Source: Patescibacteria group bacterium
GTDB taxonomy: Bacteria; Patescibacteriota; Minisyncoccia; Phycocordibacterales; Phycocordibacteraceae
DNA length: 64,000 nucleotides
Assembly (NCBI GenBank): GCA_038064595.1
Contig: JBBTSV010000001.1
Coordinates: 1,915 to 65,914 of the forward strand
Reading direction: 5' to 3'
Shown here: in pieces, positions 6,765-50,933 of the stretch
How positions within the stretch are numbered: the first letter of the stretch is position 1
How the letters are laid out: each line of letters opens with the position of its first letter
The notes under the pieces: model-generated
Database searches by the model: none
What the model was told of the DNA's origin: nothing
What the model saw: the letters and a program-made list of their open reading frames with translations, nothing else
Made by a program: the position numbers and the translations under genes

Positions 6765-7503
6765 AGCGGCGGCTACTCTCTGAGAGGAGGGGCGCCCACA
6801 CGAGTCGGTTCACGATGAAGACGATGACGAGGATACCGAGCGCGCCCGCAACGGCGCTTGGGCTAAGGCCAGAAGCGTCGGCGCCTTTAATAAACGCGCC
6901 AAAGCCTTCACTACTGATAATAATTTCAGCGCCAATCACCGCTTCCCAGCCTATCGCGATACCCACAATTGAACCTGAAAGCACAGCGGGAAATGAGAGA
7001 GGGGCAAGGTAGTGGGTAATGCGGCGAAACCCTGTCGCACCAAAGATGATAGCTGCATCATTCAGATCTTTATGGACACTGCGGATGGTCGTGAGCACGG
7101 CAAAGAGTATGGGCCACACGATAGAGGTGACGGCAAACAAGACGATCATTTTGTCGGTGAAGCCGAAAAAGTAGACAAAGAGGGGGAAGAGAGCAAACGA
7201 GGGAAGGTTCTGGAGGACGTCAAAAAAGGGGAAGAGGAAATCCATAAGGGGACTCCAACCGACGAGAAGGCCGATCCCCACCCCCAGAGCCAGCGCGATA
7301 CCGTACGCAACAATCAGCCGGTATGTTGTCTGAAGAACTGCGTCAGTGAGTATGGGCCAGTCAACATCGGTAAAGTATCCCGTTTCGACAAACAAGACGG
7401 CACCGATAATCACCAGAGTCATCAGGAGCCACGCCAAGCGATTGCGTATCGAGTGCGCGTAGTGGAGCGAACGCGTTTTGGGATGCGAGATGCTCCCGAT
7501 CAT
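6754..7503 (-). CDS. ABC transporter permease (BPD_transp_1-like EAA loop)
   Basis: Six TM segments, DAAIIFGATGF EAA-like motif, overlaps the ATPase start. Confidence 0.8.
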   Translation of the reverse strand: MIGSISHPKTRSLHYAHSIRNRLAWLLMTLVIIGAVLFVETGYFTDVDWPILTDAVLQTTYRLIVAYGIALALGVGIGLLVGWSPLMDFLFPFFDVLQNLPSFALFPLFVYFFGFTDKMIVLFAVTSIVWPILFAVLTTIRSVHKDLNDAAIIFGATGFRRITHYLAPLSFPAVLSGSIVGIAIGWEAVIGAEIIISSEGFGAFIKGADASGLSPSAVAGALGILVIVFIVNRLVWAPLLSESSRRYAE

Positions 7504-7532
7504 GAGTTCATTCTAGCGCATCACGGGGTATC

Positions 7533-8462
7533 TCAGGGGAGGGTGTGTGGAGGAGTGGCGTCGCGTTCATCAAACTTGAAACCGCGTGCGACAAGCTCGC
7601 TCCAGAGATAGTTGTACCACAGTCGATATCCTTCACTGCTCGGATGCATTTTGTCTTTGGCATAGTAGCGATCAGGGTTTTCAAAAAATGGATTGGAGGT
7701 GTATTTGTGGATCTTCTCCGTAATAAAAAGCTCGACGAGCGGTAATCCGACCGCATCAGTCGCTCGCGCGAACACGTCGTGCACAATATCAGTACGCCGT
7801 CCGATAACCGAACGGATGAACGCTGGGAAGAAGGGTGCTTGTCCAAGATTTGCGTAAAAAAGTACAACGACGCGTCGATTGCTTTTTGCAATGGCTTGAT
7901 CAAGGAGGCGGCGGAGGTCTCGTTCAAGCGATGTTACACTGGTACGAAACAAAATATCGTTTCCTCCTGTACTTATAACAATCAAATCAAATGTCTGAGA
8001 GTCAGTACGCTCGAGTTGGGTGATGGCATCGCGTACGAGTGATCCATTTACCGCAACGTTGAGAATGGACGTATGAGGGAAATCGCGTCCAAGACGTCCT
8101 GCGATAGTATCTTCTGGCGCATCAGCACCAGTGCCGTACGCAGTACTATCACCAAGGACAAGAATTCGTTTCGGGCCATCACGCTGCGCTGAGTACACGA
8201 CAGGTTTCTTCCACATAAATTGAACCTCATGAAGCAGTGTCCAAATCATGTGGAGTACCTTGAGTGTCACGAGGAGTGCCGTACCTTCTCCAAGTAGGAT
8301 GAGGAATGCTGGGAGGAAGATCTCCACACCGACGGGTCCACCCAAGGAGATTCCATCGACGAGTGACTGTATATTCTCTCTTGTATGAGTGATCGCACCA
8401 CTACCGATACTAACAAAAACATCTCCAACTCGAGAGCCTATCGTGCGAAGAAAATCGGTCAT
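7533..8462 (-). CDS. SGNH/GDSL hydrolase with N-terminal membrane domain
   Basis: LVLGDSTAYG (GDS), GGNDI, and DKMHPSSEGY catalytic blocks. Confidence 0.7.
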   Translation of the reverse strand: MTDFLRTIGSRVGDVFVSIGSGAITHTRENIQSLVDGISLGGPVGVEIFLPAFLILLGEGTALLVTLKVLHMIWTLLHEVQFMWKKPVVYSAQRDGPKRILVLGDSTAYGTGADAPEDTIAGRLGRDFPHTSILNVAVNGSLVRDAITQLERTDSQTFDLIVISTGGNDILFRTSVTSLERDLRRLLDQAIAKSNRRVVVLFYANLGQAPFFPAFIRSVIGRRTDIVHDVFARATDAVGLPLVELFITEKIHKYTSNPFFENPDRYYAKDKMHPSSEGYRLWYNYLWSELVARGFKFDERDATPPHTLP

Positions 8463-9193
8463 GTTAGGAGCGCTCGTATGAGCGTCTCGTGTATCTGACG
8501 ATACCACACTTCATACCCTGCGTCATTTGGATGCATTAAATCACGAGCGAGGAGCTTCTGATCTATAACCGGGTCGTTTTTTTCATGGAAGAGTGATACA
8601 TGCGATACGCCAACCTCGTGCGCAACTTCCTGGTACAATATCTTCATTTGTCTTGAGCGATTGTGATAGAGCGGTAACAGAAAAGGAGGATAGCACAACA
8701 TGAGTCCCGCGTTGTTTGGACTAATAAGCACAATGTTTTTTCCGTACTGTTGACTCCGCGTAAGTATGGTCTTGAGGGAGCGCCGCAGAAGTGCAAGAGG
8801 GGTAAAACAAACAAGGTTCATACCACCAAGCATGATGACAATGAGATCAAATGGAGGGGTGTTTTTCTGAACGCGAGTATCAAGTGCAGTATGCGCGTAG
8901 GAGAGATAGACTCCCGGTTTACTCGCATTTTCAATATGGGCAGTTGGAATCGCAGCAGCAAGTCTCCCAGGGATGGAGTAGCGACCTTCGCTGGCACCTG
9001 TACCGTATCCGGTACTATCACCGATAAAGAGTACGCGCATCGGCGCTTGATCGTTGTGGCGTTCATAAGTGGTAAGCGCCGCACTCAATTCTCGCGAGAT
9101 TCGTAATTGACGGTATACGCGCATAGCTCCACACACGCCGTAGAATATCAGCATTCCGACAACGATACCCACCCCCTGACCGACACCTGTCAT
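8459..9193 (-). CDS. SGNH/GDSL hydrolase (paralog of the gene downstream)
   Basis: LFIGDSTGYG, GGMN, and DLMHPNDAGY blocks. Confidence 0.7.
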   Translation of the reverse strand: MTGVGQGVGIVVGMLIFYGVCGAMRVYRQLRISRELSAALTTYERHNDQAPMRVLFIGDSTGYGTGASEGRYSIPGRLAAAIPTAHIENASKPGVYLSYAHTALDTRVQKNTPPFDLIVIMLGGMNLVCFTPLALLRRSLKTILTRSQQYGKNIVLISPNNAGLMLCYPPFLLPLYHNRSRQMKILYQEVAHEVGVSHVSLFHEKNDPVIDQKLLARDLMHPNDAGYEVWYRQIHETLIRALLT

Positions 9194-9196
9194 GTT

Positions 9197-10759
9197 TTAC
9201 TGATTAGGAATCACTTTATAGTCTTTAGTTTCGTCTACCAGGACCACATCTCCCTCACGCAATCCTGACACTATCTCAACATAGCCATCGACACCGACTG
9301 ATCCGGTTTCGACATGGGTGCGCACAGGCATGTCATTTTGGAGCAGGTTGACCGTGGCGCTTTTACCAGCACCAGCGACGGCAGCGAGGGGGATAGCGAG
9401 TACGGACGGCTTATCAGCAACTTGAATGTGTGCGGATGCGGTGAGACCCGGACGGATATGCGCGTCGAACGGATCGAAGTAGACCGTCACTTTAAAATTA
9501 GGGACACTGTCTTGAGGGGTTGCCGTTGGATCAATGGAGCGCAGAGTGCCCGTAAATGACTCACCCGGGAATGCGTCAAGCATAATGGACACCCTCTGGC
9601 CGACCACTATTTTATTCGAGTGAACCTCTGGAACATACCCCTCAAGCTTTAAGGGTCCCGTAGCGATAAGGGAGAGCACGGTAGCTCCGGCGCCGACTGC
9701 TTCACCAACGTTTGGCTCTATCGAGGCGACGGTACCTGAAAGGGGAGCAACAAGAGTTTGGTCACTCAGCGTATCCTTTAGTTCGGCAACCAATTCACGC
9801 GCATGCGCAACGGCCGCTTCCTGTGCCTGACGCGCTTCGTGTGTTGGACCAGACAGGAGAAGATCGAGCTCGCGCTCTGCGACGGTGACCGCTGCTTGAG
9901 TGCTCCGCACGGCGCTATATGCCTCATCAAGGGTGCGATCAATCCCGGTAAGAGCCGTACGAGCGGTCGTCACCGCACTCTGTGCGGCGGCACTTTGGGT
10001 TGGATCGCCGCTTGCGAGAAAGGTCGTCAAATTATCGAGGATACCTGCGATGACCTGTATGTAGTCGTGCATGTCATCGGTGGCATCGAGTAACGCGTCG
10101 ACGGATCCAGTCTGGAGTGCCGTGATGCGTGATCGCCATGAGATAAGTTGTGGCTGGAGATTACGGCGGGCACTGAGTGTCTGGATACTTGTTTGTTGAT
10201 CGACGATAAGGATGGTGAACGAGGAATGTGTAAAGGACGGGTTCTGAATAAATTGATCAATAGTGACGCGGATGACCGTGTCGGTCATGCTTTGGGCACT
10301 CGCGATCACCTTCAGCAATGCCTTTTGTGCATTGGTAAAGGCAGTCTGGGCATCGGTTACCTGAGCACTGGCTACGGCTATCTGTTCAGGGCGGGTTCCA
10401 CGAAGAAGTTCACGTAATCGTGCGCTCTCCGCATCAAACTGTGCCTGTGCCTGTGCAAGCTGGTCTTTTACCGTCGAGCTCCGTAAGACTATCAGCGGGG
10501 TGGTGGTCGTCACCGAGTCCCCAACGTTCACGAGGACAGCTTCCACAATGCCGTTGTTTTTGAAAGCAAGATCAATCGTTTCGGCAGCTTTTGTTGTTCC
10601 GAACATATCGACTTGCTCGACTATGTGCCGGTAGCTCACGGGTACGGGTGTGAGCACCACTGATTGGGCACCCTGCATTTTTGCATAGCCGTACCATAGA
10701 CCAACGCCGCCGAGGACGACACCCACCACGACGGACACCACGGTCAGGATACGAGTCAT
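9197..10759 (-). CDS. HlyD/MacA-like periplasmic adaptor subunit of an efflux system
   Basis: N-terminal TM, long coiled-coil/alpha-hairpin, beta-barrel C-terminal region; located upstream of a MacB-like ATPase and permease. Confidence 0.75.
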   Translation of the reverse strand: MTRILTVVSVVVGVVLGGVGLWYGYAKMQGAQSVVLTPVPVSYRHIVEQVDMFGTTKAAETIDLAFKNNGIVEAVLVNVGDSVTTTTPLIVLRSSTVKDQLAQAQAQFDAESARLRELLRGTRPEQIAVASAQVTDAQTAFTNAQKALLKVIASAQSMTDTVIRVTIDQFIQNPSFTHSSFTILIVDQQTSIQTLSARRNLQPQLISWRSRITALQTGSVDALLDATDDMHDYIQVIAGILDNLTTFLASGDPTQSAAAQSAVTTARTALTGIDRTLDEAYSAVRSTQAAVTVAERELDLLLSGPTHEARQAQEAAVAHARELVAELKDTLSDQTLVAPLSGTVASIEPNVGEAVGAGATVLSLIATGPLKLEGYVPEVHSNKIVVGQRVSIMLDAFPGESFTGTLRSIDPTATPQDSVPNFKVTVYFDPFDAHIRPGLTASAHIQVADKPSVLAIPLAAVAGAGKSATVNLLQNDMPVRTHVETGSVGVDGYVEIVSGLREGDVVLVDETKDYKVIPNQ

Positions 10760-10788
10760 TATCCTCTATTGTAGAACATATTTTCCGT

Positions 10789-11496
10789 CTAGAGACCCAC
10801 CATTTGCTGAAGCGGGGATTGTGGAATATGGGTGACGTCAACGAGTTGGCCCTGTTTCAACTCGAGCACGCGTGTGGCCATACTAAGCGACTCTCGTTCA
10901 TGGGTCACCATAATAATCGTGGAACCCGCTTTGTGGATAGCTCTAAACATCGAAAGAATTTCAAGGGCGCTGGTAGTGTCCAGGTTGGCCGTCGGCTCAT
11001 CGGCCAATATATACGAGGGATTATGGGCGATTGCACGAGCAATCGAGACGCGTTGTTGTTGTCCACCTGAAAGTTTCGATGGTCGGTATTTGGCATGATC
11101 GCCCAGACCGACGCGGTCGAGTGCAGCACGGGCGAGTTCTTTTGCCTCAGCACGACTCTTTCCTCGCATAATGAGAGGGAGCACGACATTATCGAGAGCA
11201 CTCATCTCAGCCATCAGCCCATAATCTTGAAAGACGTACCCCAAACGGTCTAAGCGCAGATCAGATCGTGCGTTCCTTGAGAGTGTGCTTCCTACGAATC
11301 CATCAATACTGACCACCCCCTCGTTTGGGGTGTCGAGGAGACCCAAGAGGTAGAGCAGCGTTGACTTACCAGAACCGGAGCGGCCGGTGATAATAACAAA
11401 CTCACCCTCTGCGGCTACGAAATCAAGGTGCTCAAACACAATAAGCGAACTCTCGCCCGAAGCGAACTGTTTTTTTAAGTTGCGTGCCTCAAGCAT
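10789..11496 (-). CDS. MacB/LolD-like ABC ATPase
   Basis: GRSGSGKSTLL, LSGGQQQRVSIARA, ILADEPTANLD. Confidence 0.85.
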   Translation of the reverse strand: MLEARNLKKQFASGESSLIVFEHLDFVAAEGEFVIITGRSGSGKSTLLYLLGLLDTPNEGVVSIDGFVGSTLSRNARSDLRLDRLGYVFQDYGLMAEMSALDNVVLPLIMRGKSRAEAKELARAALDRVGLGDHAKYRPSKLSGGQQQRVSIARAIAHNPSYILADEPTANLDTTSALEILSMFRAIHKAGSTIIMVTHERESLSMATRVLELKQGQLVDVTHIPQSPLQQMVGL

Positions 11497-11501
11497 AGGA
11501 G

Positions 11502-12788
11502 TTAGCGGCCGAGAATGGCATCGACGATTTCTTGTCGCATAATCATTCGTGCCGGGACAATGCTTGCGCACATAATCGCTATGTAGAGCACCAACGCTTT
11601 TACCCACGCCTCGGTGATCGATACAGAAAGGATACCATTACTGAAAGGAAAATCGATCGGGTGAGCAACGAAATATGGTTCAATAAGCATAAAATTAAGC
11701 GCAATGCCAATGACTGCGCCCAGTGAGGAAAAGAGCGATGATTGAGCCACATAACCTATCTCGATGCCACCCGGACGGACCCCGATGGCTTGTAGGATGC
11801 CGATAGAACGGCGGTGGGTGACCGTGTTGATAAATACCAAAATAAAGACCGCAATGAATGATATGACCAAGCCCGTACTTCCAAGAATCGTGCCCAACTG
11901 ACCGAATGTTGATGCAAAGTCTTGGAAAAATGACGGTTCGGAGTCACGACCATAGAGTATCAAACCGTTATTCCCTATAGGCGAACGCTTGAGCTGGTCT
12001 CGAATGGTGGGGGCACTCGCTCCAGGAGCAACTCTGACCGCGATCTCGTTGACTCCCCGATTCGTTCGTCCAAGCATAGCGCGAAGTTGAGCATCCACCA
12101 TGTAGGCACTCAAGTTTATTTCCTCCAATTTACTTGCCACGATTCCTTTTACGGTCATTTCTCGCTCAATACCGTTCAGCATGATACGTACTTTGTCTCC
12201 CACCCCAACCTTGGGGATGGGTATGGTACCAGGGAGTGCCGTGAGCGTTTTGTACCGTGCCAACAGGCTCGTACCGATGAGAATCTGGTTGTAATCCGTG
12301 GGACGTAAATACTCACCCTCAACAATGAGGTGAGAGAGCCCGGTCGTGGCATCTTCTGCGGTTGGGTCGATACCAATGAACGTCGAAATAATTACATCGG
12401 GAGTATCTTGTTCAGTGATCTTCTCTGCATAATTTCCCTCGATGATCCCGGTTGTTTTGTAACGCGGAGAAAACGAGGTAATAAGTGGCAGCGTTTTTAA
12501 ATAAGAGATTGTGTCGGGAGAGTTCAGGATGGCGTTTTTTCGATCGTGCTGGACGATCATAATGTCCCCCGTATAGTGATCTCGTCGCTCTTGGCGTAGC
12601 CCATCAACAATACCGACCAGCAGCCCACTGACCATGAGGAGGTTGAGATACGTCAGAATCATCACGACCACAATAAGGATTGACGTACCCTTATTCGCCA
12701 GCATCTGACGGTTTGCAAGGAAAAATCCAACACGGATCGTGTTCCAGGTGCGCCTGAATGAGGAGGGAGGCATACTACGAGGATCCAT
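11502..12788 (-). CDS. MacB/FtsX-like ABC permease with a large periplasmic domain
   Basis: FtsX-family C-terminal TM bundle; -10 TATACT lies 7 nt upstream of the ATG at 12788. Confidence 0.75.
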   Translation of the reverse strand: MDPRSMPPSSFRRTWNTIRVGFFLANRQMLANKGTSILIVVVMILTYLNLLMVSGLLVGIVDGLRQERRDHYTGDIMIVQHDRKNAILNSPDTISYLKTLPLITSFSPRYKTTGIIEGNYAEKITEQDTPDVIISTFIGIDPTAEDATTGLSHLIVEGEYLRPTDYNQILIGTSLLARYKTLTALPGTIPIPKVGVGDKVRIMLNGIEREMTVKGIVASKLEEINLSAYMVDAQLRAMLGRTNRGVNEIAVRVAPGASAPTIRDQLKRSPIGNNGLILYGRDSEPSFFQDFASTFGQLGTILGSTGLVISFIAVFILVFINTVTHRRSIGILQAIGVRPGGIEIGYVAQSSLFSSLGAVIGIALNFMLIEPYFVAHPIDFPFSNGILSVSITEAWVKALVLYIAIMCASIVPARMIMRQEIVDAILGR

Positions 12789-12857: not shown

Positions 12858-14081
12858 ATGACCTCTCCTTCCCGTTATCGACCCCGCATTCTCTTTGTAA
12901 GTGAAGCAGTCACGCTCGCCCATCTTGCACGCCCGCTTGCGCTTGCTTCAGCACTCGCTGAAGATGAATACGATGTCCATCTTGCCGTTGGGGATGCGTT
13001 TGAGACAGTCGTGAAGCAGAGTGCGATCACACGACACACGATTACCAACCTTTCGCGTACTGAACTCATCAAACGTGTGCGACGTGGTGCGCCCCTCTTT
13101 GACCGCGCGACTCTTGAACGAGAGGTGGTTGAAGATCAGGCGCTCATCAGAGCCCTCCAACCAGATCTCATCATCGGAGACTTCCGGCTTTCGCTTGGGG
13201 TAAGCGCCCGCATCTGTCGGGTCCCGTACGCCGGCATCTCCAATGCATACTGGAGCCCATCAGTAGCCTCCTGGTACGAGGTACCGCCGACTTTGTTTAC
13301 CCGTGTGTGTCCGCTCCCGCTCGCCCAATTCTTTTTTGATCATGCACAGACGCACATCTTTGCGCACCACACTCGACCCTACAACCAGGTACGTGCGCAC
13401 TATGGTCTTCCCCCGATCCCGCCAACGCTTACACACCTGTATACCGACGCTGACCACATGCTCTACGCTGATCCCCCTGACTTATTCCGAGGGCCACAGT
13501 ATTTAGCAAATGAACATTTTCTAGGGTTCATGCCGTGGTCGCTCGAAGCCCCGCACCCCTCAACGATAGAGTTTCCCAATACACACGAACCGCTCTGTTA
13601 CGTCGCACTCGGCAGCAGCGGTGCGCACCATCTAACCGAGAAAATTATTCAAGCATTCGGTGCTCTGCCGGTACGCGCGCTCATCGGGCGCGACGCCCAT
13701 CTCGTTGACGTCCCCCTCTCGCCTAACGTGCGTTTGACGCCGCTTTTGTCGGCAGCAACGATAGCAGAAAAAGCTGATCTCTTGATTATCAATGGCGGAA
13801 GTACGATGACGAGTCATGCGATAACTGCTGGGAAGCCAATAATCGGTATATCGGACAACATTGACGCATTGCTCAACATGCAGCGGATCGTAGCAAGTGG
13901 TATCGGCCTCTCCTTTCGTACCGATCGCTTTACGTCTCGAATGTTTGCAGATGGAGTGATGCGGATATTAACTGACCCCACCTTTCGCACAGCCGCACAG
14001 CTCCTTCAACGCTCTGCAGCGCAGCACGACTTTCGGAGAAATATCAGGTCATTCATTTCTTCAGTGACTGGTATACAATAA
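12858..14081 (+). CDS. GT-B glycosyltransferase, family 1 / MGT-like (UDP-sugar dependent)
   Basis: C-terminal signature INGGSTMTSHAITAGKPIIGISDNIDALLNMQRIVASGIG; -10 TATACT 8 nt upstream of the ATG. Confidence 0.8.
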   Translation: MTSPSRYRPRILFVSEAVTLAHLARPLALASALAEDEYDVHLAVGDAFETVVKQSAITRHTITNLSRTELIKRVRRGAPLFDRATLEREVVEDQALIRALQPDLIIGDFRLSLGVSARICRVPYAGISNAYWSPSVASWYEVPPTLFTRVCPLPLAQFFFDHAQTHIFAHHTRPYNQVRAHYGLPPIPPTLTHLYTDADHMLYADPPDLFRGPQYLANEHFLGFMPWSLEAPHPSTIEFPNTHEPLCYVALGSSGAHHLTEKIIQAFGALPVRALIGRDAHLVDVPLSPNVRLTPLLSAATIAEKADLLIINGGSTMTSHAITAGKPIIGISDNIDALLNMQRIVASGIGLSFRTDRFTSRMFADGVMRILTDPTFRTAAQLLQRSAAQHDFRRNIRSFISSVTGIQ

Positions 14082-14089
14082 AGGTACGC

Positions 14090-14758
14090 ATGAAAACCTC
14101 ACCTCTCGACCTTGTGTTCAACGGAGGTGCTTTCCTCCTCATTCTCGGGGGGGTGAGCGTGATTGTGCTCTGGTACGTTGCCCCCTTCACGACTGCGCTC
14201 ACGGGGGTATACCATCCCGTGTTTGATGTCGTGGTCGCGTCCGTCTTGTTTGGGGTAGGCGCAGGTATCCTGGTACGCACCACGCTTCTATTTCTCCCAC
14301 TTCAGCAAGGAACCTTTCGTATGGATCAACCGATTTTTACCTACTGGAAATTTCTCACCCTCACCTATTACACCGGGAAAGCTGCGCTCTCTCCAGTAAC
14401 GGTACTTCCACTTCGCCCGTGGGTGTTACGACTGTTTGGGGCACGTATTGGTAGCGACGTTGCGATTGATGGTGTGGTCGACACCCCGTTCCTCACCACC
14501 ATTGGCGATCGCACGCTTGTGGGAAACGGGTCACATCTTGCGGGGAACGTGACCCAGAACGGAGCACTGATTATCGGGCGTGTACAGATTGGATCAGACG
14601 TTACTATTTGTATGAATGCGGTCGTATTGCCGAATACGATCATCGGTGACCGTGCGGTCGTTGACATTGGCGCGGTGGTCATGCCCGGCTCGGTGATACC
14701 GGCAGGAGAGACCTGGCGGGGGAATCCGGCACGCAAGTGGCTCGGCGCGAGCGTCTAA
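14090..14758 (+). CDS. hexapeptide-repeat (LbH) acetyl/acyltransferase with N-terminal TM segments
   Basis: Imperfect tandem hexapeptide repeats (IGSDVAIDG.., IGDRTLVGNG.., IGSDVTIC..). Confidence 0.75.
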   Translation: MKTSPLDLVFNGGAFLLILGGVSVIVLWYVAPFTTALTGVYHPVFDVVVASVLFGVGAGILVRTTLLFLPLQQGTFRMDQPIFTYWKFLTLTYYTGKAALSPVTVLPLRPWVLRLFGARIGSDVAIDGVVDTPFLTTIGDRTLVGNGSHLAGNVTQNGALIIGRVQIGSDVTICMNAVVLPNTIIGDRAVVDIGAVVMPGSVIPAGETWRGNPARKWLGASV

Positions 14759-14762
14759 CACT

Positions 14763-15014
14763 ATGGATACGCGAGACAGAGTTCGCACCGTGTTTGACGA
14801 TACGCTCCAGCTCGGTGGACGCACCGCCGCGTGGGAGGAGACGACCCCGCTCCTCGGGAGCTTGGCCGAACTTGATTCGCTGACTATCTTTACGGTCATC
14901 GCTGCGCTCGAGAAAGAATTCGCTATCGCGTTTGATGATGGCGATATCAATGCCGAGGTGCTCGCGACACTCGGTTCACTCACCGCGTTTATCGACGAGA
15001 AACAGGCGACATAA
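14763..15014 (+). CDS. acyl carrier protein (phosphopantetheine site LDSL)
   Basis: 83 aa, acidic, LAELDSLTIFTVI helix-II serine. Confidence 0.65.
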   Translation: MDTRDRVRTVFDDTLQLGGRTAAWEETTPLLGSLAELDSLTIFTVIAALEKEFAIAFDDGDINAEVLATLGSLTAFIDEKQAT

Positions 15015-15020
15015 TCTGCC

Positions 15021-16601
15021 ATGATCATCCTCGTTCACGATCTCATAGCATCTGCAGCAGAGCGGTGGGGGGAACGGGTTGCGTTGCGGTACCAGAATCA
15101 AGAACTCACCTACCGGGCGCTCGCAGACGCGGTCGCCGCGAGCGCGTCCGGCTACAGGGCTCTCGGGCTTGCGCGCGGCGATCGTGTTGCGGTGTATACC
15201 GAGAAACGTCTCGAGACCGTCATCGCGCTCTTTGGCGCCACACATGCTGGTGGGGTCATGGTGCCTGTTAATCCGGTACTCAAGGCCAATCAGGTCGCAC
15301 ATATTGTACGCGACAGCACCGCACGCATACTTGTGACTACGAGTGAGCGGGTCGCGAGCCTCTCCGCCGTGCTTGATACCTGCCCAAGCCTCACTCACGT
15401 GATCTGTATCGGTGAAGCGCCCATTGACCACTCGGCGCGATTCTCGTGGGTTGGGTGGTCGTCTCTTCTGGAACAGGTGCCGTGTGAAGGTCACCGCACT
15501 ATTGATAGCGATATCGCCGCGCTCCTCTATACCTCCGGGAGTACGGGGAGACCCAAGGGCGTGATCATACCGCATCGTGTGCTCTGTGCGGGCGCGGCAA
15601 GTGTCGCAACGTATCTCGAGCTGACCGCCAAGGAGCGTGTGCTCGCCGTTCTCCCACTCTCTTTTGATTATGGTCTCAATCAACTGACGGCGACGTGGTA
15701 TGCAGGCGGCTGCGTGGTACTCATGAACCATCTTCTCGTAAAGGACATTATTTCTATGGTGGAGAAGGAGAAGATTACCGGTCTTGCGGCGGTGCCCGCA
15801 CTCTGGATCCAGCTCGCGCAGCTCTCATGGCCGCCCGCGTGTCGTGCCCACCTACGCTATATCACGAACTCTGGTGGGCATATGCCCAATGAAACGCTTG
15901 CGCGTTTACGTGCCGCGCTCCCGACCACCACTCCATACCTGATGTACGGCCTCACCGAGAGCTTCCGCTCGACCTACCTGCCACCGGCCGATCTTGATAC
16001 GCGCCCCGACTCTATCGGAAAAGCGATCCCGAATGCAGAGGTTTTGGTGGTACGCCCAGACGGCACTCCCTGCGCGCCGCATGAGCCGGGAGAGCTCGTG
16101 CATCGCGGCACACTGGTCGCACTTGGATACTGGAACGACCCGGAGAAGACCAAGGAGCGTTTTCGTCCGCTTCCGGGGCAGCGCCCCGAATTGCCTCTCG
16201 CCGAGCTTTGTGTGTGGTCCGGCGATACGGTTACTATGGATGAGGACGGGTACCTCTATTATGTTGGGCGCACTGATGAAATGATTAAGACGTCGGGGTA
16301 TCGAGTGAGCCCGACAGAGATCGAGGAGGTACTCTATGCCACGAAGCTCGTTGGGGAGGTCGCTGTTTTCGGCGTCCCGCATCCGGAGCTCGGGCAGGCA
16401 ATCGCGGTAGTCGCGACCCCCGCCTTGGGCACTGATCTCTCGCCCGAGACGCTGCTCACTGTCTGTCGACAGCGCTTCCCGCGCTATATGGTCCCAGCTC
16501 ATCTCGAGGTTGTGCACGGACCGCTTCCGGTGAACGCCAATGGGAAGTTCGACCGCCGTCTGCTTGCCGAAGAACGGAAACACGTATGCATCACATCTTA
16601 A
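15021..16601 (+). CDS. AMP-dependent synthetase/ligase (acyl-CoA or acyl-ACP ligase)
   Basis: LYTSGSTGRPKGV AMP-binding motif, 526 aa. Confidence 0.85.
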   Translation: MIILVHDLIASAAERWGERVALRYQNQELTYRALADAVAASASGYRALGLARGDRVAVYTEKRLETVIALFGATHAGGVMVPVNPVLKANQVAHIVRDSTARILVTTSERVASLSAVLDTCPSLTHVICIGEAPIDHSARFSWVGWSSLLEQVPCEGHRTIDSDIAALLYTSGSTGRPKGVIIPHRVLCAGAASVATYLELTAKERVLAVLPLSFDYGLNQLTATWYAGGCVVLMNHLLVKDIISMVEKEKITGLAAVPALWIQLAQLSWPPACRAHLRYITNSGGHMPNETLARLRAALPTTTPYLMYGLTESFRSTYLPPADLDTRPDSIGKAIPNAEVLVVRPDGTPCAPHEPGELVHRGTLVALGYWNDPEKTKERFRPLPGQRPELPLAELCVWSGDTVTMDEDGYLYYVGRTDEMIKTSGYRVSPTEIEEVLYATKLVGEVAVFGVPHPELGQAIAVVATPALGTDLSPETLLTVCRQRFPRYMVPAHLEVVHGPLPVNANGKFDRRLLAEERKHVCITS

Positions 16602-17800
16602 ACTCTTTTTCTACCACCAACCACGAGCTCGTCATCGGCGGTGTGCCGCTCACAACGCTCGTGGCGCGTGTTGGCTCCACCCCTTTGTATGTCTATGATC
16701 GAGAGCGGATCACTGACCGGGTTGCACTTCTGCGGAAACACCTCTCGCCGATGCTCAACGTCTCCTATGCCATGAAGGCAAACCCCATGCCCGCCGTGCT
16801 CGCGCACCTTGCGTCACAGGTTGATGGCTTTGACGTCTCCTCGCTTACCGAGATGACGCGGGCGCTCGATACAGGCATGCCAGCTACCGCGATAAGCTTT
16901 TCTGGACCGGGGAAAACTGAAAAAGAAATCACCTGTGCCGTGGCGGCGGGCGTACTCCTCCATGTGGAGTCGCTCCGCGAGCTGCGAGCAGTTATCGCTG
17001 CGGGGATAGCACTCGGACAGACACCACGCATTGCACTCCGGATCAATCCGGATTTTGCGGTGAAGGGGGTAAAGATAAAAATGGGCGGGATGACCCAGTT
17101 TGGTGTTGATCCGGAGACCGTCCCCGAGATGCTCACGATGCTCACGGCAGCCGGTCTTACCTGTGAAGGATTCCACATCTTCTGTGGCTCGCAGAACCTG
17201 CATGCCGACCTCGCAGTTACTGTGGTGAAGGACTCTCTTGCGCTCCTGTATCGTCTCTCTGCGCAGCTCCCCGCGCCGCCGCGTTCGCTCGTCCTCGGTG
17301 GCGGGTTCGGCATCCCGTATTTCCCGGGTGACGAGCCACTTGATATAGCTGCCGTGGGGAAGGGGCTCCAGCCTCTCCTGACTGAAGCGAAAGCGCATTT
17401 TCCCGAGGCAGTCATTGGTATGGAGCTTGGGCGCTATCTGGTGGGCGAAGCCGGGGTATATGTCGCGCGGGTGATAGACACAAAAACGGTACGGGAAAAA
17501 ACCTTTGTCGTCACCGATGGCGGACTCCATCACCACCTACCCGCCTCGGGGAACTTTGGGCAGTTTATCCGCCGCAACTACCCCGTCGCCATCGGTAACC
17601 GCATGAACACCCCAGCCACTGAGATCGTCTCAATCGTGGGGCCACTGTGCACCACCCTCGATCTTCTGGCCGACTCGGTGCAGCTGCCGCACGTGAGTAT
17701 TGGCGATCTGGTGGTCGTCTTTCAGTCGGGAGCGTACGGCCTCACTGCAAGCCCCCTCGACTTTCTCAGTCACCCACACCCCGTCGAAGTACTGGTCTAG
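16586..17800 (+). CDS. PLP-dependent decarboxylase (Orn/DAP/Arg decarboxylase fold type III)
   Basis: N-terminal TIM-barrel with AMKAN (PLP lysine) and a C-terminal beta-sandwich; overlaps the ligase stop. Confidence 0.8.
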   Translation: MHHILNSFSTTNHELVIGGVPLTTLVARVGSTPLYVYDRERITDRVALLRKHLSPMLNVSYAMKANPMPAVLAHLASQVDGFDVSSLTEMTRALDTGMPATAISFSGPGKTEKEITCAVAAGVLLHVESLRELRAVIAAGIALGQTPRIALRINPDFAVKGVKIKMGGMTQFGVDPETVPEMLTMLTAAGLTCEGFHIFCGSQNLHADLAVTVVKDSLALLYRLSAQLPAPPRSLVLGGGFGIPYFPGDEPLDIAAVGKGLQPLLTEAKAHFPEAVIGMELGRYLVGEAGVYVARVIDTKTVREKTFVVTDGGLHHHLPASGNFGQFIRRNYPVAIGNRMNTPATEIVSIVGPLCTTLDLLADSVQLPHVSIGDLVVVFQSGAYGLTASPLDFLSHPHPVEVLV

Positions 17801-17822
17801 AAGGCGGTATACTATACGTACT

Positions 17823-18683
17823 ATGTCCGTTGATGCTTGGTCATACCGTGAAGCGTTTGATCGCAACAGAAAGCTCATTAGTGACGATCATCAAGAAAAA
17901 CTCGAGCAGGCGCGCGTCGCGATCGCGGGGCTCGGCGGGGTCGGCGGGATCCACGCCACCACGCTTGCGCGGCTTGGGATAGGGCACTTCAGCATCGCTG
18001 ACCCCGATACGTTTGAGCTCTCCAATATCAATCGGCAACAAGGGGCGAACACCACCACCCTTAACATGCCCAAGAACATCACCCTCGAGCGGCTCATAAA
18101 AGAGATTAACCCCACAGCCGAGGTGCGCGTGAGCGGCGCCCTGACCGAAGAAAATATCGACGCCTTTCTCGAGGGAGCAACGCTTGCCGTCGACGGTATC
18201 GATTTCTTCACTATAAGTGCCCGCCGTCTCCTCTACCGCACATGCCGCGCGCGCGGGATCCCGGTCCTGGGCGCCGGACCAATCGGCTTTGGGTCCTCGA
18301 TGCTCAACTTCAGCCCCACTGGCATGAGCTTCGACGACTACATGAACATCACCGATGCCTTGCCGGAGCGTGAGCAGATACTCCACTTCGCGCTTGGTAT
18401 CGCACCGCGCATGCTCCAACGTTCCTACTTTGCGCCCACGACTATCGACTTCGCGGGTCATCACGCCCCCTCCTCCGTGCTGGGGACCCTCGCGTGTGCC
18501 AACTTCGTTGGTTGTGAGGCGTACAAGATTATCGTCGGACTCCCGTATGAGAGTGCACCGGTTTCCTGGCACTTCGACCCCTACGTGCGAAAGCTCCGAC
18601 GCTGCAACCTATGGGGAGGGAATCGTAACCCCATTCAGCGCTTCAAAAAATGGTATTTTATACATATCCTTAAATTGAAATGA
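17823..18683 (+). CDS. ThiF/MoeB/HesA-family E1-like adenylyltransferase
   Basis: VAIAGLGGVGG nucleotide-binding loop, NINRQ motif. Confidence 0.75.
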   Translation: MSVDAWSYREAFDRNRKLISDDHQEKLEQARVAIAGLGGVGGIHATTLARLGIGHFSIADPDTFELSNINRQQGANTTTLNMPKNITLERLIKEINPTAEVRVSGALTEENIDAFLEGATLAVDGIDFFTISARRLLYRTCRARGIPVLGAGPIGFGSSMLNFSPTGMSFDDYMNITDALPEREQILHFALGIAPRMLQRSYFAPTTIDFAGHHAPSSVLGTLACANFVGCEAYKIIVGLPYESAPVSWHFDPYVRKLRRCNLWGGNRNPIQRFKKWYFIHILKLK

Positions 18684-19324
18684 CCGCAACGCTCACTAAG
18701 AGGGTCGGCATACGCTCGCTCGACACCATATTCCGCACGACCCAGCTCATTACCTACCCCTTCAACTGGTGGCTCAGTCGGCGTATCAAGCTGACGGCAC
18801 GGGTGCCCTATACCTTCAGCGTACCGCGCGGGACCCTGGTGCTTGCAAATCACCGGAGTCTCTTTGATCCGTTTTTGATCGCGTATCACTTGGGGATGGA
18901 GAATTGGCTCCACACGATCCCCACGCGCTATCCGGCGACTCCTGACTATACGCTTCGCCCCATCCTTGGTTCGGTGATACGTGCGCTCGGCGCCTACAAC
19001 ATCGGTAGGACACCGATGGAGCGCGCCAAGAAGCTCGTGTTTACCCGTGACCTGCTTGATCGCGGATGTACGGTCCTCCTTTTTCCAGAAGGGAAGATTG
19101 TAGATAACGGGGAAGTGGTCGCCGAGTTTCAGCGGGGTATCAAGATGCTTTTCGCCCAGGACTACCCGATCGTCCTCGTCCGCCTCTCGGGCTTCAACAC
19201 CCACTCATTTCTGCGTCCCCATACCGTCGCCGACGCCCGTATTGAGTACAGCCCCGTTATCCGAGGGACTCCCGAGATGAAGCTCGAGCAACTCCGCACG
19301 TTTTACGGCTTACGCGATGTATGA
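18680..19324 (+). CDS. PlsC-family (lysophospholipid/OlsA-like) acyltransferase
   Basis: HXXXXD motif NHRSLFD and FPEG block. Confidence 0.75.
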   Translation: MTATLTKRVGIRSLDTIFRTTQLITYPFNWWLSRRIKLTARVPYTFSVPRGTLVLANHRSLFDPFLIAYHLGMENWLHTIPTRYPATPDYTLRPILGSVIRALGAYNIGRTPMERAKKLVFTRDLLDRGCTVLLFPEGKIVDNGEVVAEFQRGIKMLFAQDYPIVLVRLSGFNTHSFLRPHTVADARIEYSPVIRGTPEMKLEQLRTFYGLRDV

Positions 19325-19926
19325 TCTGGGATCTGGTGCGCAGTAGCGAGACGACGCGCGCGGCGCTCTCTACCGCCGGACATCAGGCAGCCACGCGCGC
19401 GGCACAGCGCGCCCTGCAGATCAGCGACCCGCGTGGAGAGCACCACACCATTGCTATCGAGAAAGATGTACTTGGGAAGCCGGAGGCGCGTGTGCTGGGG
19501 AGTGCCCAGTCAGTCGCGGTGTCCATATCACACGCAGCTCCGTTTGTCTGTGCGGTCGCGGATACGGCGCCGGTACTGCTCGGTACCGACATCGAGCGTA
19601 TCCGCCCGTGCACCACTGCCGTTTGGGAGGCCTGTCTCACCCCCGCGGAAAAAGCGTTCATCGCGGCCGCGCCGCGCCGCGAGCGCGAGATGCTCCAGAT
19701 TCGCGCGTGGTCGCTCAAGGAGGCGGTACTGAAGGCATTTGGGGTGGGGTTGCGCGTGCATCCGCGCAATGTTGATGTGACCAATGCGCTTGGGGCGACC
19801 ACCTCGACCGTGCGTATTGGATGGCGGGGGGTGTGGCATACTGCAACGGTAGAGTGGATGCACCTTAACCCCACCTATGTCGCGGTGGCGGTTGCATTTC
19901 CTTTTTCAGCTCGTACACTAGAGTGA
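19321..19926 (+). CDS. 4'-phosphopantetheinyl transferase (Sfp/EntD type)
   Basis: GTDIE and WSLKEAVLKA motifs. Confidence 0.75.
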   Translation: MIWDLVRSSETTRAALSTAGHQAATRAAQRALQISDPRGEHHTIAIEKDVLGKPEARVLGSAQSVAVSISHAAPFVCAVADTAPVLLGTDIERIRPCTTAVWEACLTPAEKAFIAAAPRREREMLQIRAWSLKEAVLKAFGVGLRVHPRNVDVTNALGATTSTVRIGWRGVWHTATVEWMHLNPTYVAVAVAFPFSARTLE

Positions 19927-20198
19927 TGGATGTTCGCGATTTTGTGCTCACGGCTATTGCAGAAACGCTTGACCTTCCGCTGGCCGTGGTGCGTGACGAC
20001 AGTAAGCTCGTCGACTTGGCCGAAGACTCGATTAAGCTCTTTGAGCTCCTAATCCGGCTCGAGAACCTTTTTTCATATCGCGTAAGTTATGAGGCGATTG
20101 TGCATATTGAGACAGTGGGCGATGTCATCGCCTACATAGAGACGCTCCCGATCGACCGCGGCGTGCTCCAGGCTACTACCCAGAAGAAAGCCGCATGA
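19923..20198 (+). CDS. acyl carrier protein (second copy, DSI serine)
   Basis: 91 aa, LAEDSIKLFELL. Confidence 0.6.
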   Translation: MMDVRDFVLTAIAETLDLPLAVVRDDSKLVDLAEDSIKLFELLIRLENLFSYRVSYEAIVHIETVGDVIAYIETLPIDRGVLQATTQKKAA

Positions 20199-20809
20199 GC
20201 GGGAACCCGCGTTGTGTGGTGCTCACCCTTCCCGCAGAAAAGCAGGCGGCCCAAGATATCGTCCGGCGTGTCTACGCGGCCCAAGGTTATGACTTGAGCG
20301 AGGGGGTGTTTGTCCGCTTCCTGCGCACCCCGAATGCTGTGGTGTGGGGGCTCTTCGAAGAGGATGTCCTCTTTGGCACCATCTCCATTATCCCTGACAG
20401 TGAGGCAGGACTCCCGATGGACTCGCTCTATGCTGAAGAGCTCGCCCCCTTTCGAGCCGAGGGGAAGAAAATAGCAGAAGTCGTCCAGTTTGCGATCGAT
20501 CATACGCTCAAAAAACCATCACCCTTTGAAGCGGTCCCGCTTCTTATCACCGTCCTCTCCTATGCACGCACCCAAAAAATTGACACCATCTGCATCTCAA
20601 TCCACCCAAAGCACAGCCAGTTCTACCACATGCTCGGTTTTGAAAAAATAGGTGACCTCAAGCAGTATCAGGCAGTCGCGGCACCAGCCGTTGCGTATGC
20701 GCTGCCGCTTGTCGCGTGGGAAACTAATCCCTTTTTTGGTAACTTTCTGCGCAACGCGATTCGCCCTGATGGTGGGGTCTCTAGTGGAGAAGAGCGAGCT
20801 GCAATATAA
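20195..20809 (+). CDS. N-acyl amino acid synthase (FeeM/OlsB-like GNAT-fold N-acyltransferase)
   Basis: About 200-aa protein with the layout of FeeM-family N-acyl amino acid synthases; terminal gene of the ACP/ligase/PPTase operon. Confidence 0.55.
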   Translation: MSGNPRCVVLTLPAEKQAAQDIVRRVYAAQGYDLSEGVFVRFLRTPNAVVWGLFEEDVLFGTISIIPDSEAGLPMDSLYAEELAPFRAEGKKIAEVVQFAIDHTLKKPSPFEAVPLLITVLSYARTQKIDTICISIHPKHSQFYHMLGFEKIGDLKQYQAVAAPAVAYALPLVAWETNPFFGNFLRNAIRPDGGVSSGEERAAI

Positions 20810-21109: not shown

Positions 21110-22027
21110 TTAGTGTAAAACCATCACTCCCTCGTGACCATAGGGATCATCCCAGAAGGTAGACTGCCAGTCGGTGGTCGCGAGGATCTTCTTCAGCTCC
21201 TCAACCTGCGTCATGTCGCATTCGACATAGAGCGTGCCGCGCTTGGTGAGATATTGTTTGCCCTTTTCGATCAGCTCTCGGTGGTGGCCAAAGCCGTCCG
21301 TGGAGCCGAAGAAGGCGATACGTGGCTCGTAGTGCATCTCGGGATCCATGTCAGCTTCACCTTTTGGGTCAACGTAGGGTGGGTTCGCGCAGAGCACGTC
21401 AAAGGTGCCGGTAATTTTCTCAAGGCTATTACCGGCGAGGAGCGTCGTCCGCGACGGATCGATTGAGTTTATCTCAAGAGATTTCTTAATCTGCGGGAGC
21501 AGTGCCGCGTCGATCTCATTAAAGGTGCAGGTCGCCTCGGGCAGGTGTTTCAAAAGCGCGATGCCGATATTGCCGGCGCCAGCGTAGAGATCGGCCGTTG
21601 TGACTGGCCCCGCATCCTTCCACTCATCAATGACCCGCTTCACCCACTGTGCTGTCTCGTCACGAGGAACCATCGGGCGATAGGAGAGGTCAATCGTTGC
21701 GCCTAAGAAATCGGTATGACCGAGCACATACTCCCACGGCTCGTGTGCTTCAAGGCGCGCACAGTCTGCGCGATAGGCGTTACCCTCGACACCCGCATAT
21801 TTCTCGGTAAGTATTTTCTGCTTCGCTTGGGCGAGAGAGAGGTACACAGTGACGTCAGTATAACGCGGATGAAACCATCGGCAGAGTACGGACGTTTTAG
21901 TGGGTATGTTCGAGAAAGTCACACTCCGCATATTCGCCCTCTGTCTCGTGAGTTGCGCGAGCTTGGTCCTTTTCTCGATGTGGGTATATAAACCAGATTC
22001 AGAGGCATACTTTAAGCTCGCGGCCAC
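21110..22027 (-). CDS. prmC: release-factor glutamine N5-methyltransferase (HemK/PrmC)
   Basis: NPPY motif (CANPPYVDP), SAM-binding GxGxG region. Confidence 0.8.
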   Translation of the reverse strand: MAASLKYASESGLYTHIEKRTKLAQLTRQRANMRSVTFSNIPTKTSVLCRWFHPRYTDVTVYLSLAQAKQKILTEKYAGVEGNAYRADCARLEAHEPWEYVLGHTDFLGATIDLSYRPMVPRDETAQWVKRVIDEWKDAGPVTTADLYAGAGNIGIALLKHLPEATCTFNEIDAALLPQIKKSLEINSIDPSRTTLLAGNSLEKITGTFDVLCANPPYVDPKGEADMDPEMHYEPRIAFFGSTDGFGHHRELIEKGKQYLTKRGTLYVECDMTQVEELKKILATTDWQSTFWDDPYGHEGVMVLH

Positions 22028-29589: not shown

Positions 29590-30114
29590 TCAGTCGGGGA
29601 GAAAGTTGCTCTCCCCCCCGAACGACAGCGAACTGTCCTCTTCGAGGGGGCGGAACCTCCGCGTCCTCACCCTTCTCTCCGCTCGGATCTGGTAGACAGA
29701 TCCGTTCCTCGTCATCACGACAAGGATCCGCTTCTTGCGGGAGTAGTAGAGGAAGTCTGTGATTGACCGCGTAACCCTCTCTTGGGGCACGCCGTCGAGC
29801 ACCTCCTCGGTGGGGATACGCAAGCGTTCCCCCGCCTTCACTCCTTGGTGGTATCCCTTTGGGATACGCCACCGGGCGCTTCGGCGCTCCTCGGGCGAAA
29901 GAAGTTGCCCATCGGAATTGCTTCCGATGTGGTCCCGCTCCTCGAGTGGGACATGATCGGTCGCCAGTCCCTTGCGGACCTGTGCGACCTTCAGGTCGCA
30001 TCCCTTGAAGTAGGTCGCCCCACCCCAAAGGATGATCGACAGCGCGCGCCACACGCGCAGGATGACCACATACGCGGCCCGTACGGCGCGCACTGCGGCA
30101 TGCAATTTTTCCAT
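29590..30114 (-). CDS. membrane-anchored hypothetical protein (174 aa)
   Basis: GGAGA Shine-Dalgarno 6 nt before the ATG, minus-strand promoter TTGACA-17-TATCAT (30173-30201), hairpin plus T-run terminator at 29561-29590. Confidence 0.5.
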   Translation of the reverse strand: MEKLHAAVRAVRAAYVVILRVWRALSIILWGGATYFKGCDLKVAQVRKGLATDHVPLEERDHIGSNSDGQLLSPEERRSARWRIPKGYHQGVKAGERLRIPTEEVLDGVPQERVTRSITDFLYYSRKKRILVVMTRNGSVYQIRAERRVRTRRFRPLEEDSSLSFGGESNFLPD

Positions 30115-49345: not shown

Positions 49346-50242
49346 ATGAATCTGTATCAGGAGCGAGCATCGAACCTTCGTCGGACATGGGCACTCGTCC
49401 TCGGTTTTTTGGTCGTCGTGATTGCGGTCGGCTACGCTATTTCTTGGTATTACGGCAACCCCCTTATCCTCTATGTGGCGGTGATGGTTGCGGTAGCGAC
49501 CAACTTTTACGCGTATTGGGCCTCTGACAAGCTCGTGCTCTCGCTCAACAAAGCGCGCCCTGCCACGCGGGAAGAGTTTTTTGATCTCTACACAGTGACC
49601 GAGAACATGGCGATTGCCGCAGGGCTGCCCACTCCCAAGCTCTACGTCATCGACGATGAGGCGCCGAACGCGTTTGCCACCGGCCGCGACGAGAACCATG
49701 CGGTCGTCTGCGCCACCACCGGATTGCTCGCACTCCTCTCGCGCCCCGAGCTCGAGGGAGTGGTCGCCCACGAGCTCGCGCACATCAAGAATCGCGATAT
49801 GCTCGTTATGACGGTGGCAGTGGTGCTCGCGGGCTTTGTGGCTATCCTCGCCGACATATTTCTGCGCACCTCGCTTCATGGAGGGTTCCGCAGCAGCGAC
49901 AGTAAACAGGGGAATGTCGTCCTCATGATCGGGGTGGTGGTCGCTATCATTCTCGCGCCGCTTGCCGCAAAGCTTATCCAGTTTGCGATCTCGCGTCGCC
50001 GCGAATTCCTTGCAGATGCTTCAGGCGCGCTCCTCACGCGCCATCCGGAAGGGCTGGCCTCGGCACTCCGTAAGATAAGCGGGGTCAACCGGCCGCTCAC
50101 CCACACGAGCCACGCGACGGCCCACCTTTTCATTGACGAGCCTTTTGGGAAGGCAGAAGGGAAGATGGGGTGGATTAACGGCCTCTTTGCTACCCACCCT
50201 CCGGTCGAGGAGCGCATTCGCGCCTTAACCCACACCCCCTAA
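49346..50242 (+). CDS. htpX: zinc metalloprotease HtpX (M48)
   Basis: HELAHIKNRD HEXXH, four TM helices. Confidence 0.85.
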   Translation: MNLYQERASNLRRTWALVLGFLVVVIAVGYAISWYYGNPLILYVAVMVAVATNFYAYWASDKLVLSLNKARPATREEFFDLYTVTENMAIAAGLPTPKLYVIDDEAPNAFATGRDENHAVVCATTGLLALLSRPELEGVVAHELAHIKNRDMLVMTVAVVLAGFVAILADIFLRTSLHGGFRSSDSKQGNVVLMIGVVVAIILAPLAAKLIQFAISRRREFLADASGALLTRHPEGLASALRKISGVNRPLTHTSHATAHLFIDEPFGKAEGKMGWINGLFATHPPVEERIRALTHTP

Positions 50243-50246
50243 GGGG

Positions 50247-50933
50247 GTGGTGTATACTCTGCACATGAAATTTTCTTTTGGGTCGCCAGACAAAAAGCCA
50301 GACAAAAGCATAGACGCACTTGAAGAGTTGCGACTCAGTAGGGAGGCTGGTAATGTCGCAGGACTCGCAGAAGACCACATCAAGTATCTGGAAGAGCAGC
50401 ACGAGACAGAAGGACTCACGGGACTCAAGACTCGTAAAGTCTTTGACCGAGAGCTCGAGGCCGCGCTGGGGCTCTTGAGCGGGAAGATACAGGAGCGTCG
50501 TGCGCACGCAGAGGCACCAAAGGTCGTTTCAGTTATCATGGTCGACCTCGATGATTTCAAAAAAATAAACGATACGCGCGGCCACGCGGTAGGTGATGCG
50601 GTGCTCCGAAGCGTAGCCGAGGTTATCAGTGAGTGCGTACGTGCTTCAGACACAGCGGCGCGCTACGGGGGTGAGGAGCTCGTGGTGCTCATGCCCGGCG
50701 CGACCGCGAAGGTTGCCGCACAGCATGCTGAGGACATTCGAGCTCGCATCGAACAACTCACCTTCGATCAGTACCCTGACTTGCGAGTGACGGGGAGCTT
50801 AGGCATCGCTGAAGTTACTGAGGTGCATGAGAATGACGAGTCTGATGTGCTGGTAAAGAATGCAGATAGGGCTATGTATGAAGCCAAAGCGAATGGCAAA
50901 AACCGTGTTGAAATCTATCAAGGAGGGCGGTAA
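50247..50933 (+). CDS. GGDEF-domain protein (GGEEL variant)
   Basis: RYGGEEL in GGDEF-domain context, DDFKKIND. Confidence 0.75.
   Translation: MVYTLHMKFSFGSPDKKPDKSIDALEELRLSREAGNVAGLAEDHIKYLEEQHETEGLTGLKTRKVFDRELEAALGLLSGKIQERRAHAEAPKVVSVIMVDLDDFKKINDTRGHAVGDAVLRSVAEVISECVRASDTAARYGGEELVVLMPGATAKVAAQHAEDIRARIEQLTFDQYPDLRVTGSLGIAEVTEVHENDESDVLVKNADRAMYEAKANGKNRVEIYQGGR

Follow-up and report, generated by a model that had tools for sequence, protein, structure and literature searches.

A stand-alone ThiF-like protein in a Patescibacterial operon as a probable cyclase of N-acyl amino acids

The gene at positions 17823..18683 on the forward strand of a 64-kb stretch of DNA (the window, i.e. 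the whole stretch analysed) from a Patescibacteria (CPR) groundwater MAG encodes what is, judged by its sequence, a genuine ThiF/E1-fold protein and not a canonical ThiF or MoeB. [quoted passage not shown] Two features of the locus are new: a conserved CPR module, ThiF-PlsC-PPTase-ACP-FeeM, that is accompanied by a MacB exporter and GDSL lipases; and, in the window, an oxidase-less arrangement in which the slot of a nitroreductase-family flavin oxidase (FDO) is held by a glycosyltransferase (GT) gene and a hexapeptide transferase (Hexa)-ACP-ligase-decarboxylase module.

Results

Gene content of the operon

The genes on which the argument draws are as follows.

7533..12773 (-): divergent exporter/lipase unit (gene calls and Pfam on the identical contig L001), made up of the next five genes
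7533-8507 (-): GDSL lipase
8459-9193 (-): GDSL lipase
9197-10759 (-): periplasmic adaptor
10789-11496 (-): ABC ATPase
11502-12773 (-): MacB-type permease
12858..14081 (+): MGT/EryCIII-like glycosyltransferase, first gene of the operon (Pfam EryCIII-like_C)
14090..17800 (+): four-gene Hexa-ACP-ligase-decarboxylase module (Pfam and NCBIfam), made up of the next four genes
14090-14758 (+): small TM and hexapeptide (LbH) transferase, resembling a Pls/PosA-type NRPS C-terminal domain
14763-15014 (+): ACP1
15021-16601 (+): AMP-ligase, passing TIGR03098
16586-17800 (+): PLP decarboxylase, passing TIGR03099
17823..18683 (+): ThiF-like (E1-fold) adenylating enzyme, NF006077/PRK08223, 286 aa (Pfam, NCBIfam and AlphaFold)
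18680..19324 (+): PlsC-family acyltransferase (Pfam Acyltransferase, E=7e-15; HX4D motif NHRSLFD)
19321..19926 (+): Sfp-type 4'-phosphopantetheinyl transferase (PPTase; Pfam ACPS, E=1e-14)
19923..20198 (+): ACP2, carrier protein directly 5' of FeeM (PP-binding domain; DSI motif in the translation)
20195..20809 (+): FeeM, N-acyl amino acid synthase (Pfam FeeM, E=2e-35; match to 2G0B)

Ten genes from 12858 to 20809, in the order GT, Hexa, ACP1, AMP-ligase, PLP decarboxylase, ThiF-like, PlsC, PPTase, ACP2, FeeM, are spaced at -16 to +22 nt and so form one tightly packed operon. The ThiF-like open reading frame begins with ATG at 17823, 22 nt beyond the stop codon of the decarboxylase, and ends with TGA at 18683; this stop codon overlaps the start codon of the PlsC-family gene (ATGA), which is translationally coupled to it. 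Promoter-like sites within the operon are at background (4 against 3.7 expected), and the terminator-like sites (11 against ~6 expected) are all weak and lie inside genes, none being read as functional. Neither GC nor GC3, taken gene by gene, separates the Hexa-ACP-ligase-decarboxylase cassette from the ThiF module, and base composition therefore gives no hint of recent transfer. The remaining genes examined in the window belong to the usual CPR housekeeping set (RF, FtsEX, CTP synthase, BipA, FtsH, RecG, class II RNR, MurJ and LepA), with no thiamine, molybdopterin or exosortase genes among them, and two open reading frames, at 29590-30735 (-; 381 aa) and 51767-52243 (+; 158 aa), have no Pfam match. 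Three separate samples yielded contigs that encode an identical ThiF-like protein, deposited under the name 'ThiF family adenylyltransferase [Patescibacteria group bacterium]'.

An E1 fold with adenylation motifs and without conserved cysteines

An earlier, sequence-only reading of this DNA had placed an E1-like adenylyltransferase at 17823-18683, and both the enzyme and its limits are borne out by the 286-aa open reading frame and by Pfam ThiF (PF00899), which covers residues 13-263 with E=2e-38. The AlphaFold model (pLDDT 92.4, pTM 0.91) consists of the E1 core and one C-terminal helix only; the rhodanese domain or peptide-clamp extension that had been suggested for scrutiny by structure prediction is accordingly absent, with neither a rhodanese domain nor an N-terminal peptide clamp found by Pfam or in the model. 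Across an alignment of 27 homologs the invariant residues are R14, N15, G36/G38/G39/G41/G42 (within the GxGGxGG motif, residues 36-42), D60, D62, N68, N70-R71-Q72, K84, D124 and D127, and the HMMER alignment matches the invariant ATP-handling residues to D59, R70, K83 and D127 of E. coli ThiF. The E1 adenylation motifs, i.e. the Arg finger, Gly-rich loop, ribose Asp, NRQ, Lys and Mg-binding Asp, are thus intact.

No Cys is invariant across the 27 aligned homologs or the family representatives, and hence the family has neither the Zn tetracysteine site nor the catalytic Cys of ThiF/MoeB. Some 60% of family representatives carry a C-x-x-C in the long helix 219-238, where the window protein has T-L-A-C (residues ~226-229, ~18498-18509); this pair may be what is left of the second Zn-binding pair in ThiF/MoeB. 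Among solved structures, AclA (9egb), ThiF, PaaA, MoeB, TcdA and MccB come closest, all at ~21% identity. By both sequence and fold the top PDB match is the set 9egb/9egc/9egd, released in 2025 as 'AclA from Tenacibaculum discolor in complex with substrate', with which the window protein has an N-terminal xRNR motif in common; a literature search traced no paper for AclA 9egb/9egc, and the match gives no functional clue.

Assignment to the NF006077 family

Model scores place the protein in one family and keep it out of several others. It passes NF006077 (PRK08223) with 324 bits (cutoff 266), a model that carries only the name 'hypothetical protein', and fails those for ThiF (TIGR02356, 84 bits, cutoff 275), MoeB (TIGR02355, 68 bits, cutoff 377), ThiF/MoeB as tested by NF004281 (77, cutoff 266) and TcdA (NF011696, 60 bits, cutoff 304), although automatic annotation has named some homologs MoeB or TcdA. 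The match to the Rv1355c/TrzS model NF005901 is distant (78 bits, cutoff 476). NF006077 is also passed by a stand-alone ThiF encoded beside an FDO (L080, 462 bits) and by the ThiF halves of ThiF-FDO di-domain proteins (L017, 408 bits; L040, 412 bits). In addition, the window protein matches the ThiF portions of PRK14851 (679 aa) and PRK14852 (989 aa), the C-terminal parts of which both align with FDOs, and the window FeeM matches the N-terminal part of PRK14852, a first hint of natural NAS-ThiF fusions.

The link to characterised enzymes runs through one of these di-domain proteins. The ThiF domain of a Roseomonas nepalensis ThiF-nitroreductase (L040) shares 48% identity with the window protein over 275 residues (E=2e-72). 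We tie L040 by species and architecture, rather than by accession, to the R. nepalensis entry that Table S1 of the OxzB discovery paper gives among the OxzB homologs; the connection to P. rubra OxzB and M. tuberculosis TyzB is likewise made through catalogued homologs and shared architecture rather than by direct alignment.

Neighbourhoods and fusions across the family

In species-representative genomes, 80 loci were found with 39-51% identity to the window ThiF, mostly from Beta- and Gammaproteobacteria and Planctomycetes, with one from a Saccharibacteria MAG; neighbours were identified with iterated profile HMMs and examples confirmed by Pfam. An FDO is adjacent or fused in 52/80 loci, 14 of the 80 being ThiF-FDO fusions of ~670 aa, and a FeeM-like NAS lies within 5 kb in 55/80. 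Taken together, FDO and/or NAS occur in 71 of the 80 loci, and NAS without FDO in 19. In many betaproteobacterial loci a homologous GT is encoded close to ThiF. A library of 1.84 billion proteins, represented at 50% identity, holds ~318 family clusters at E<=1e-30, and the length of 74 of the best 150 representatives fits a di-domain protein; Pfam confirmed fusions of the types ThiF-NTR, NTR-ThiF, NAS-ThiF, NAS-ThiF-NTR and methyltransferase-ThiF. This family pattern is the architecture of OxzAB, TyzABC and TrzAS.

Proteins P0279, P0306 and P0347 carry the methyltransferase-ThiF fusion, and methyltransferase genes also lie beside the ThiF module in CPR loci (e.g. L090, 9886-10563) and in the window (21110-22027, -), which recalls the methyltransferase-ThiF-nitroreductase clusters for stieleriacines.

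The protein partner expected of a canonical E1 enzyme was not found. The sequence-only reading had held that the operon has no ThiS/MoaD-like partner and had proposed a search for a small GG-terminated open reading frame that might have been missed; throughout the 64-kb window only one open reading frame of 40-140 aa ends in GG (50190..50507, -), and it is spurious, lying antisense to M48 peptidase and GGDEF genes. The lack of a partner in the window accordingly stands. The operon also has no unassigned inter-gene space that would give room for a precursor peptide. That reading had further set against itself a canonical MoeB/ThiF, variably present in orthologous operons, with its partner encoded elsewhere; what we find is failure of the canonical models together with consistent linkage to FeeM-type synthases.

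FeeM and the likely substrate

Four genes downstream of the ThiF-like gene and within the same operon, the window FeeM shows 54% identity (E=7e-54) to the FeeM of known crystal structure, 2G0B, and keeps its proposed catalytic Glu95. It probably makes the substrate of the ThiF-like enzyme, which would most likely be a long-chain N-acyl aromatic amino acid; an aromatic amino acid such as tyrosine is favoured because of the 54% identity to FeeM. ACP2, which we take to be a counterpart of FeeL, would be the acyl donor carrier for FeeM, and the ACP-FeeM pair is conserved in CPR relatives.

The ThiF of 'uncultured bacterium CSLC2' (P0019) is 57% identical to that of the window, proteobacterial homologs being 39-48% identical. 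CSLC2 is presumably a soil-eDNA NAS clone from the laboratory that described the fee cluster, and the classic soil-eDNA N-acyl-tyrosine clones may derive from CPR-like bacteria.

Patescibacterial relatives and the missing oxidase

Nine Patescibacterial relatives with 58-74% identity to the window ThiF were compared. In 8/9 of these loci PlsC, PPTase, ACP and FeeM genes accompany ThiF, and in five (L084, L085, L087, L089 and L091) the exact run ThiF-PlsC-PPTase-ACP-FeeM is kept; PlsC lies directly 3' of ThiF in 5/9 and nearby in three others. A divergent unit of FDO, MacB permease, ABC ATPase, adaptor and two GDSL lipases is present in L084, L085, L090 and L091, where the FDO gene is immediately upstream of ThiF on the opposite strand; in L084 it spans 7818-8924 on the minus strand. 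L088 has the genes of this unit in rearranged form, L089 has MacB and FDO ~5 kb away, and L087 retains only the two GDSL lipases. The conserved MacB exporter and lipases suggest that the product is exported and that acyl chains are scavenged, and the corresponding MacB/ABC/adaptor and GDSL lipase genes of the window would be candidate exporter and lipid-scavenging partners. One CPR homolog (L086, 9001-9867; 66% identity) is solitary, with no FeeM, PlsC, ACP or FDO within 9 kb, so that the linkage of ThiF to the FeeM module is strong but not universal. In L092 (4138-5866) two ThiF paralogs (P0013 and P0018) stand in tandem upstream of PlsC-PPTase.

FDO is found in 6/9 of the relatives, whereas profile HMM and tblastn searches with four queries found no FDO/nitroreductase homolog above chance in the 64-kb window; for want of an FDO homolog there, the canonical three-enzyme pathway is incomplete in the window. 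In its place, between the MacB gene and ThiF, stand the GT, Hexa, ACP1, ligase and decarboxylase genes, which are found in none (0/9) of the relatives' loci.

A junction of two modules

The nearest homologs of the decarboxylase (63-65% identity) have the same genes alongside and no ThiF: L093 has a Hexa-ACP-ligase-decarboxylase run at 5560-9319, and L094 (1491-4809) a decarboxylase with Hexa-ACP ~1 kb downstream. Because this unit occurs elsewhere without ThiF, and because the ThiF loci of CPR relatives lack it, the operon joins two modules; ThiF is part of the ThiF-PlsC-PPTase-ACP-FeeM module and not of the Hexa-ACP-ligase-decarboxylase module that precedes it. What had earlier been described as one lipid biosynthetic operon is made up of these two modules.

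The TM-hexapeptide transferase, ACP, TIGR03098 ligase and TIGR03099 decarboxylase recur together in the window (14090-17800), L093 and L094, and the window ligase also matches amino-acid adenylation domains (272 bits); the set looks like a dissociated Pls-type A-T-C system. The next-best decarboxylase matches (55-61% identity) include 'exosortase A system-associated' decarboxylases of Betaproteobacteria, although most of the matches are unnamed; despite the exosortase names, there is no exosortase gene among the window genes examined. Action of the PLP decarboxylase on an N-acyl amino acid was considered and set aside on mechanistic grounds, i.e. the need for a free alpha-amine.

Discussion

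Proposed reaction

[quoted passage not shown] An FDO would in most relatives then desaturate this product; since the FDO gene is missing from the window, its product would either be the saturated azlactone or be oxidised by the product of a gene elsewhere in the genome.

This proposal draws on family membership, on the linkage and fusions, and on the ATP-binding residues, and takes the cyclisation, including that of a saturated substrate, by analogy with homologs, for three of which (OxzB, TyzB and TrzS) ATP-dependent cyclisation of N-acyl amino acids to oxazolones has been demonstrated biochemically. From the same comparison we infer the identity of the substrate and that the window protein would perform the same reaction. 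Counting against a cyclase are the lack of an FDO homolog in the window, the score of only 78 bits with the TrzS model, and the PlsC, ACP and PPTase of the CPR module, which have no role in the published pathway. [quoted passage not shown]

Alternative readings

Saturated azlactones are reactive species and good acyl donors. It is conceivable, though on our assessment unlikely, that the N-acyl-aminoacyl adenylate or azlactone made by ThiF serves as an activated donor and is intercepted by an amine or hydroxyl that neighbouring enzymes provide; the nucleophile might then come from the decarboxylase product, the Pls-like hexapeptide transferase, the GT or PlsC, at a similarly low likelihood, and ThiF would act as an amide- or ester-forming condensation enzyme for head-group elaboration. 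Consistent with this are the occupation of the FDO slot by GT and Hexa-ACP-ligase-decarboxylase genes in one translationally coupled operon, the position of PlsC after or near ThiF in the CPR loci as counted above, and the report in the OxzB discovery paper of some oxzB genes that lie in clusters with GTs and NRPSs. The NF006077 family offers no precedent for such a reaction, however, and the Hexa-ACP-ligase-decarboxylase genes, being an independent module that is found without ThiF, may adjoin it fortuitously; moreover, sister genomes (67-72% identity) keep FDO, which argues for unchanged chemistry.

E1 enzymes normally pass acyl-adenylates to thiols, and the core CPR modules have no AMP-ligase even though FeeM-type enzymes need acyl-ACP. 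ThiF might on these grounds adenylate a scavenged fatty acid or N-acyl amino acid and load it onto the phosphopantetheine thiol of ACP2, standing in for an acyl-ACP synthetase in organisms that lack fatty-acid synthesis, a role that we hold to be quite improbable: fusions and linkage throughout the family are to NAS and FDO and not to ACPs, proteobacterial members work with NAS enzymes that use acyl-CoA, an acyl-ACP synthetase may be encoded elsewhere, and an AMP-ligase is in any case present in the window. There is scarcely any likelihood, finally, that the protein is a canonical ThiF/MoeB, TcdA or MccB/PaaA-type enzyme whose macromolecular substrate is encoded elsewhere. The E1 fold, the nearest structures at ~21% identity and the MoeB and TcdA auto-annotations would agree with this, but the ThiF, MoeB and TcdA scores lie far under their cutoffs, the invariant Cys, N-terminal peptide clamp and rhodanese domain are all lacking, and neither a GG-ended partner nor thiamine or Moco genes appear among the window genes examined.

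Implications

If the enzyme is the cyclase that we favour, the generic label 'ThiF family adenylyltransferase', carried by hundreds of metagenomic proteins, could be replaced by a specific and testable role, and ultra-small Patescibacteria would have retained a conserved pathway, linked to an exporter, to N-acyl amino acid or oxazolone lipids, a plausible tool for interaction with host membranes. CPR/Patescibacteria are generally regarded as lacking fatty-acid synthesis. A search of the full-text literature for Patescibacteria together with N-acyl amino acids returned nothing relevant. The oxidase-less variant is a natural experiment on whether a useful reactive azlactone can arise from the ThiF step by itself, and the ThiF module may indicate the source organisms of the classic soil-eDNA clones. 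Were the donor role to prove true, an E1-like enzyme would be the condensation catalyst that builds a complex exported amphiphile in a CPR bacterium that is presumably unable to make its own fatty acids.

Comparison with known systems

The supposition that activity of an E1-like enzyme in a lipid pathway would be unusual has been overtaken by chemistry published between 2020 and 2025, since when a small-molecule role has been known for the ThiF-like family, of which the window gene is a further member. In Pseudoalteromonas rubra, whose di-domain protein was the starting point of this chemistry, OxzA makes N-acyl-Tyr/Phe and OxzB (A0A5S3UR53), a ThiF-nitroreductase di-domain oxazolone synthetase, gives the oxazolone only with ATP present; according to a 2025 review, no ThiF-like enzyme other than OxzB is known to have a small-molecule substrate. 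The window protein resembles OxzB in its NF006077 subfamily, in its FeeM/GNAT-type N-acyltransferase partner, in the lack of a ubiquitin-like partner and in its proposed small-molecule substrate. It differs in being stand-alone, with neither a nitroreductase/FDO domain nor such a gene in the window, and in an NAS of the ACP type (FeeM-like) rather than the acyl-CoA type of OxzAB, within a Patescibacterial rather than a Proteobacterial host.

TyzB of M. tuberculosis (Rv2338c, 'MoeW', P95234), a ThiF homolog that cyclises N-acyl tyrosine in an ATP-dependent manner, is likewise stand-alone, ~300 aa long and encoded beside an NAS, and a lipid exporter gene is nearby in both cases (MmpL9 at tyzACB, MacB in the window); unlike the window ThiF, TyzB works with an adjacent FDO, TyzC. 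For TrzS, cyclisation by the ThiF domain must come before desaturation, the saturated cyclised intermediate builds up without O2 or with an inactive FDO, and mutation of the conserved Asp of the adenylation motif (D217A) gives an inactive enzyme; this D217 corresponds by motif to the invariant D127 of the window protein. TrzS is, however, a tryptophan-specific fusion from Actinobacteria, related to the window protein only through the distant NF005901 match.

The fee cluster (FeeM/FeeL, soil eDNA, long-chain N-acyl tyrosine) is like the window in the FeeM sequence with its catalytic Glu and in an ACP gene immediately upstream, and unlike it in that the accessible part of the fee-related literature gives no role to a ThiF. 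TcdA, too, forms an oxazolone, by cyclodehydration of an N-carbamoyl amino acid moiety. With E. coli ThiF/MoeB and TcdA the window protein has the fold and the ATP-binding residues in common, but at ~21% identity, without Zn-binding cysteines and outside any ThiS/MoaD or tRNA context.
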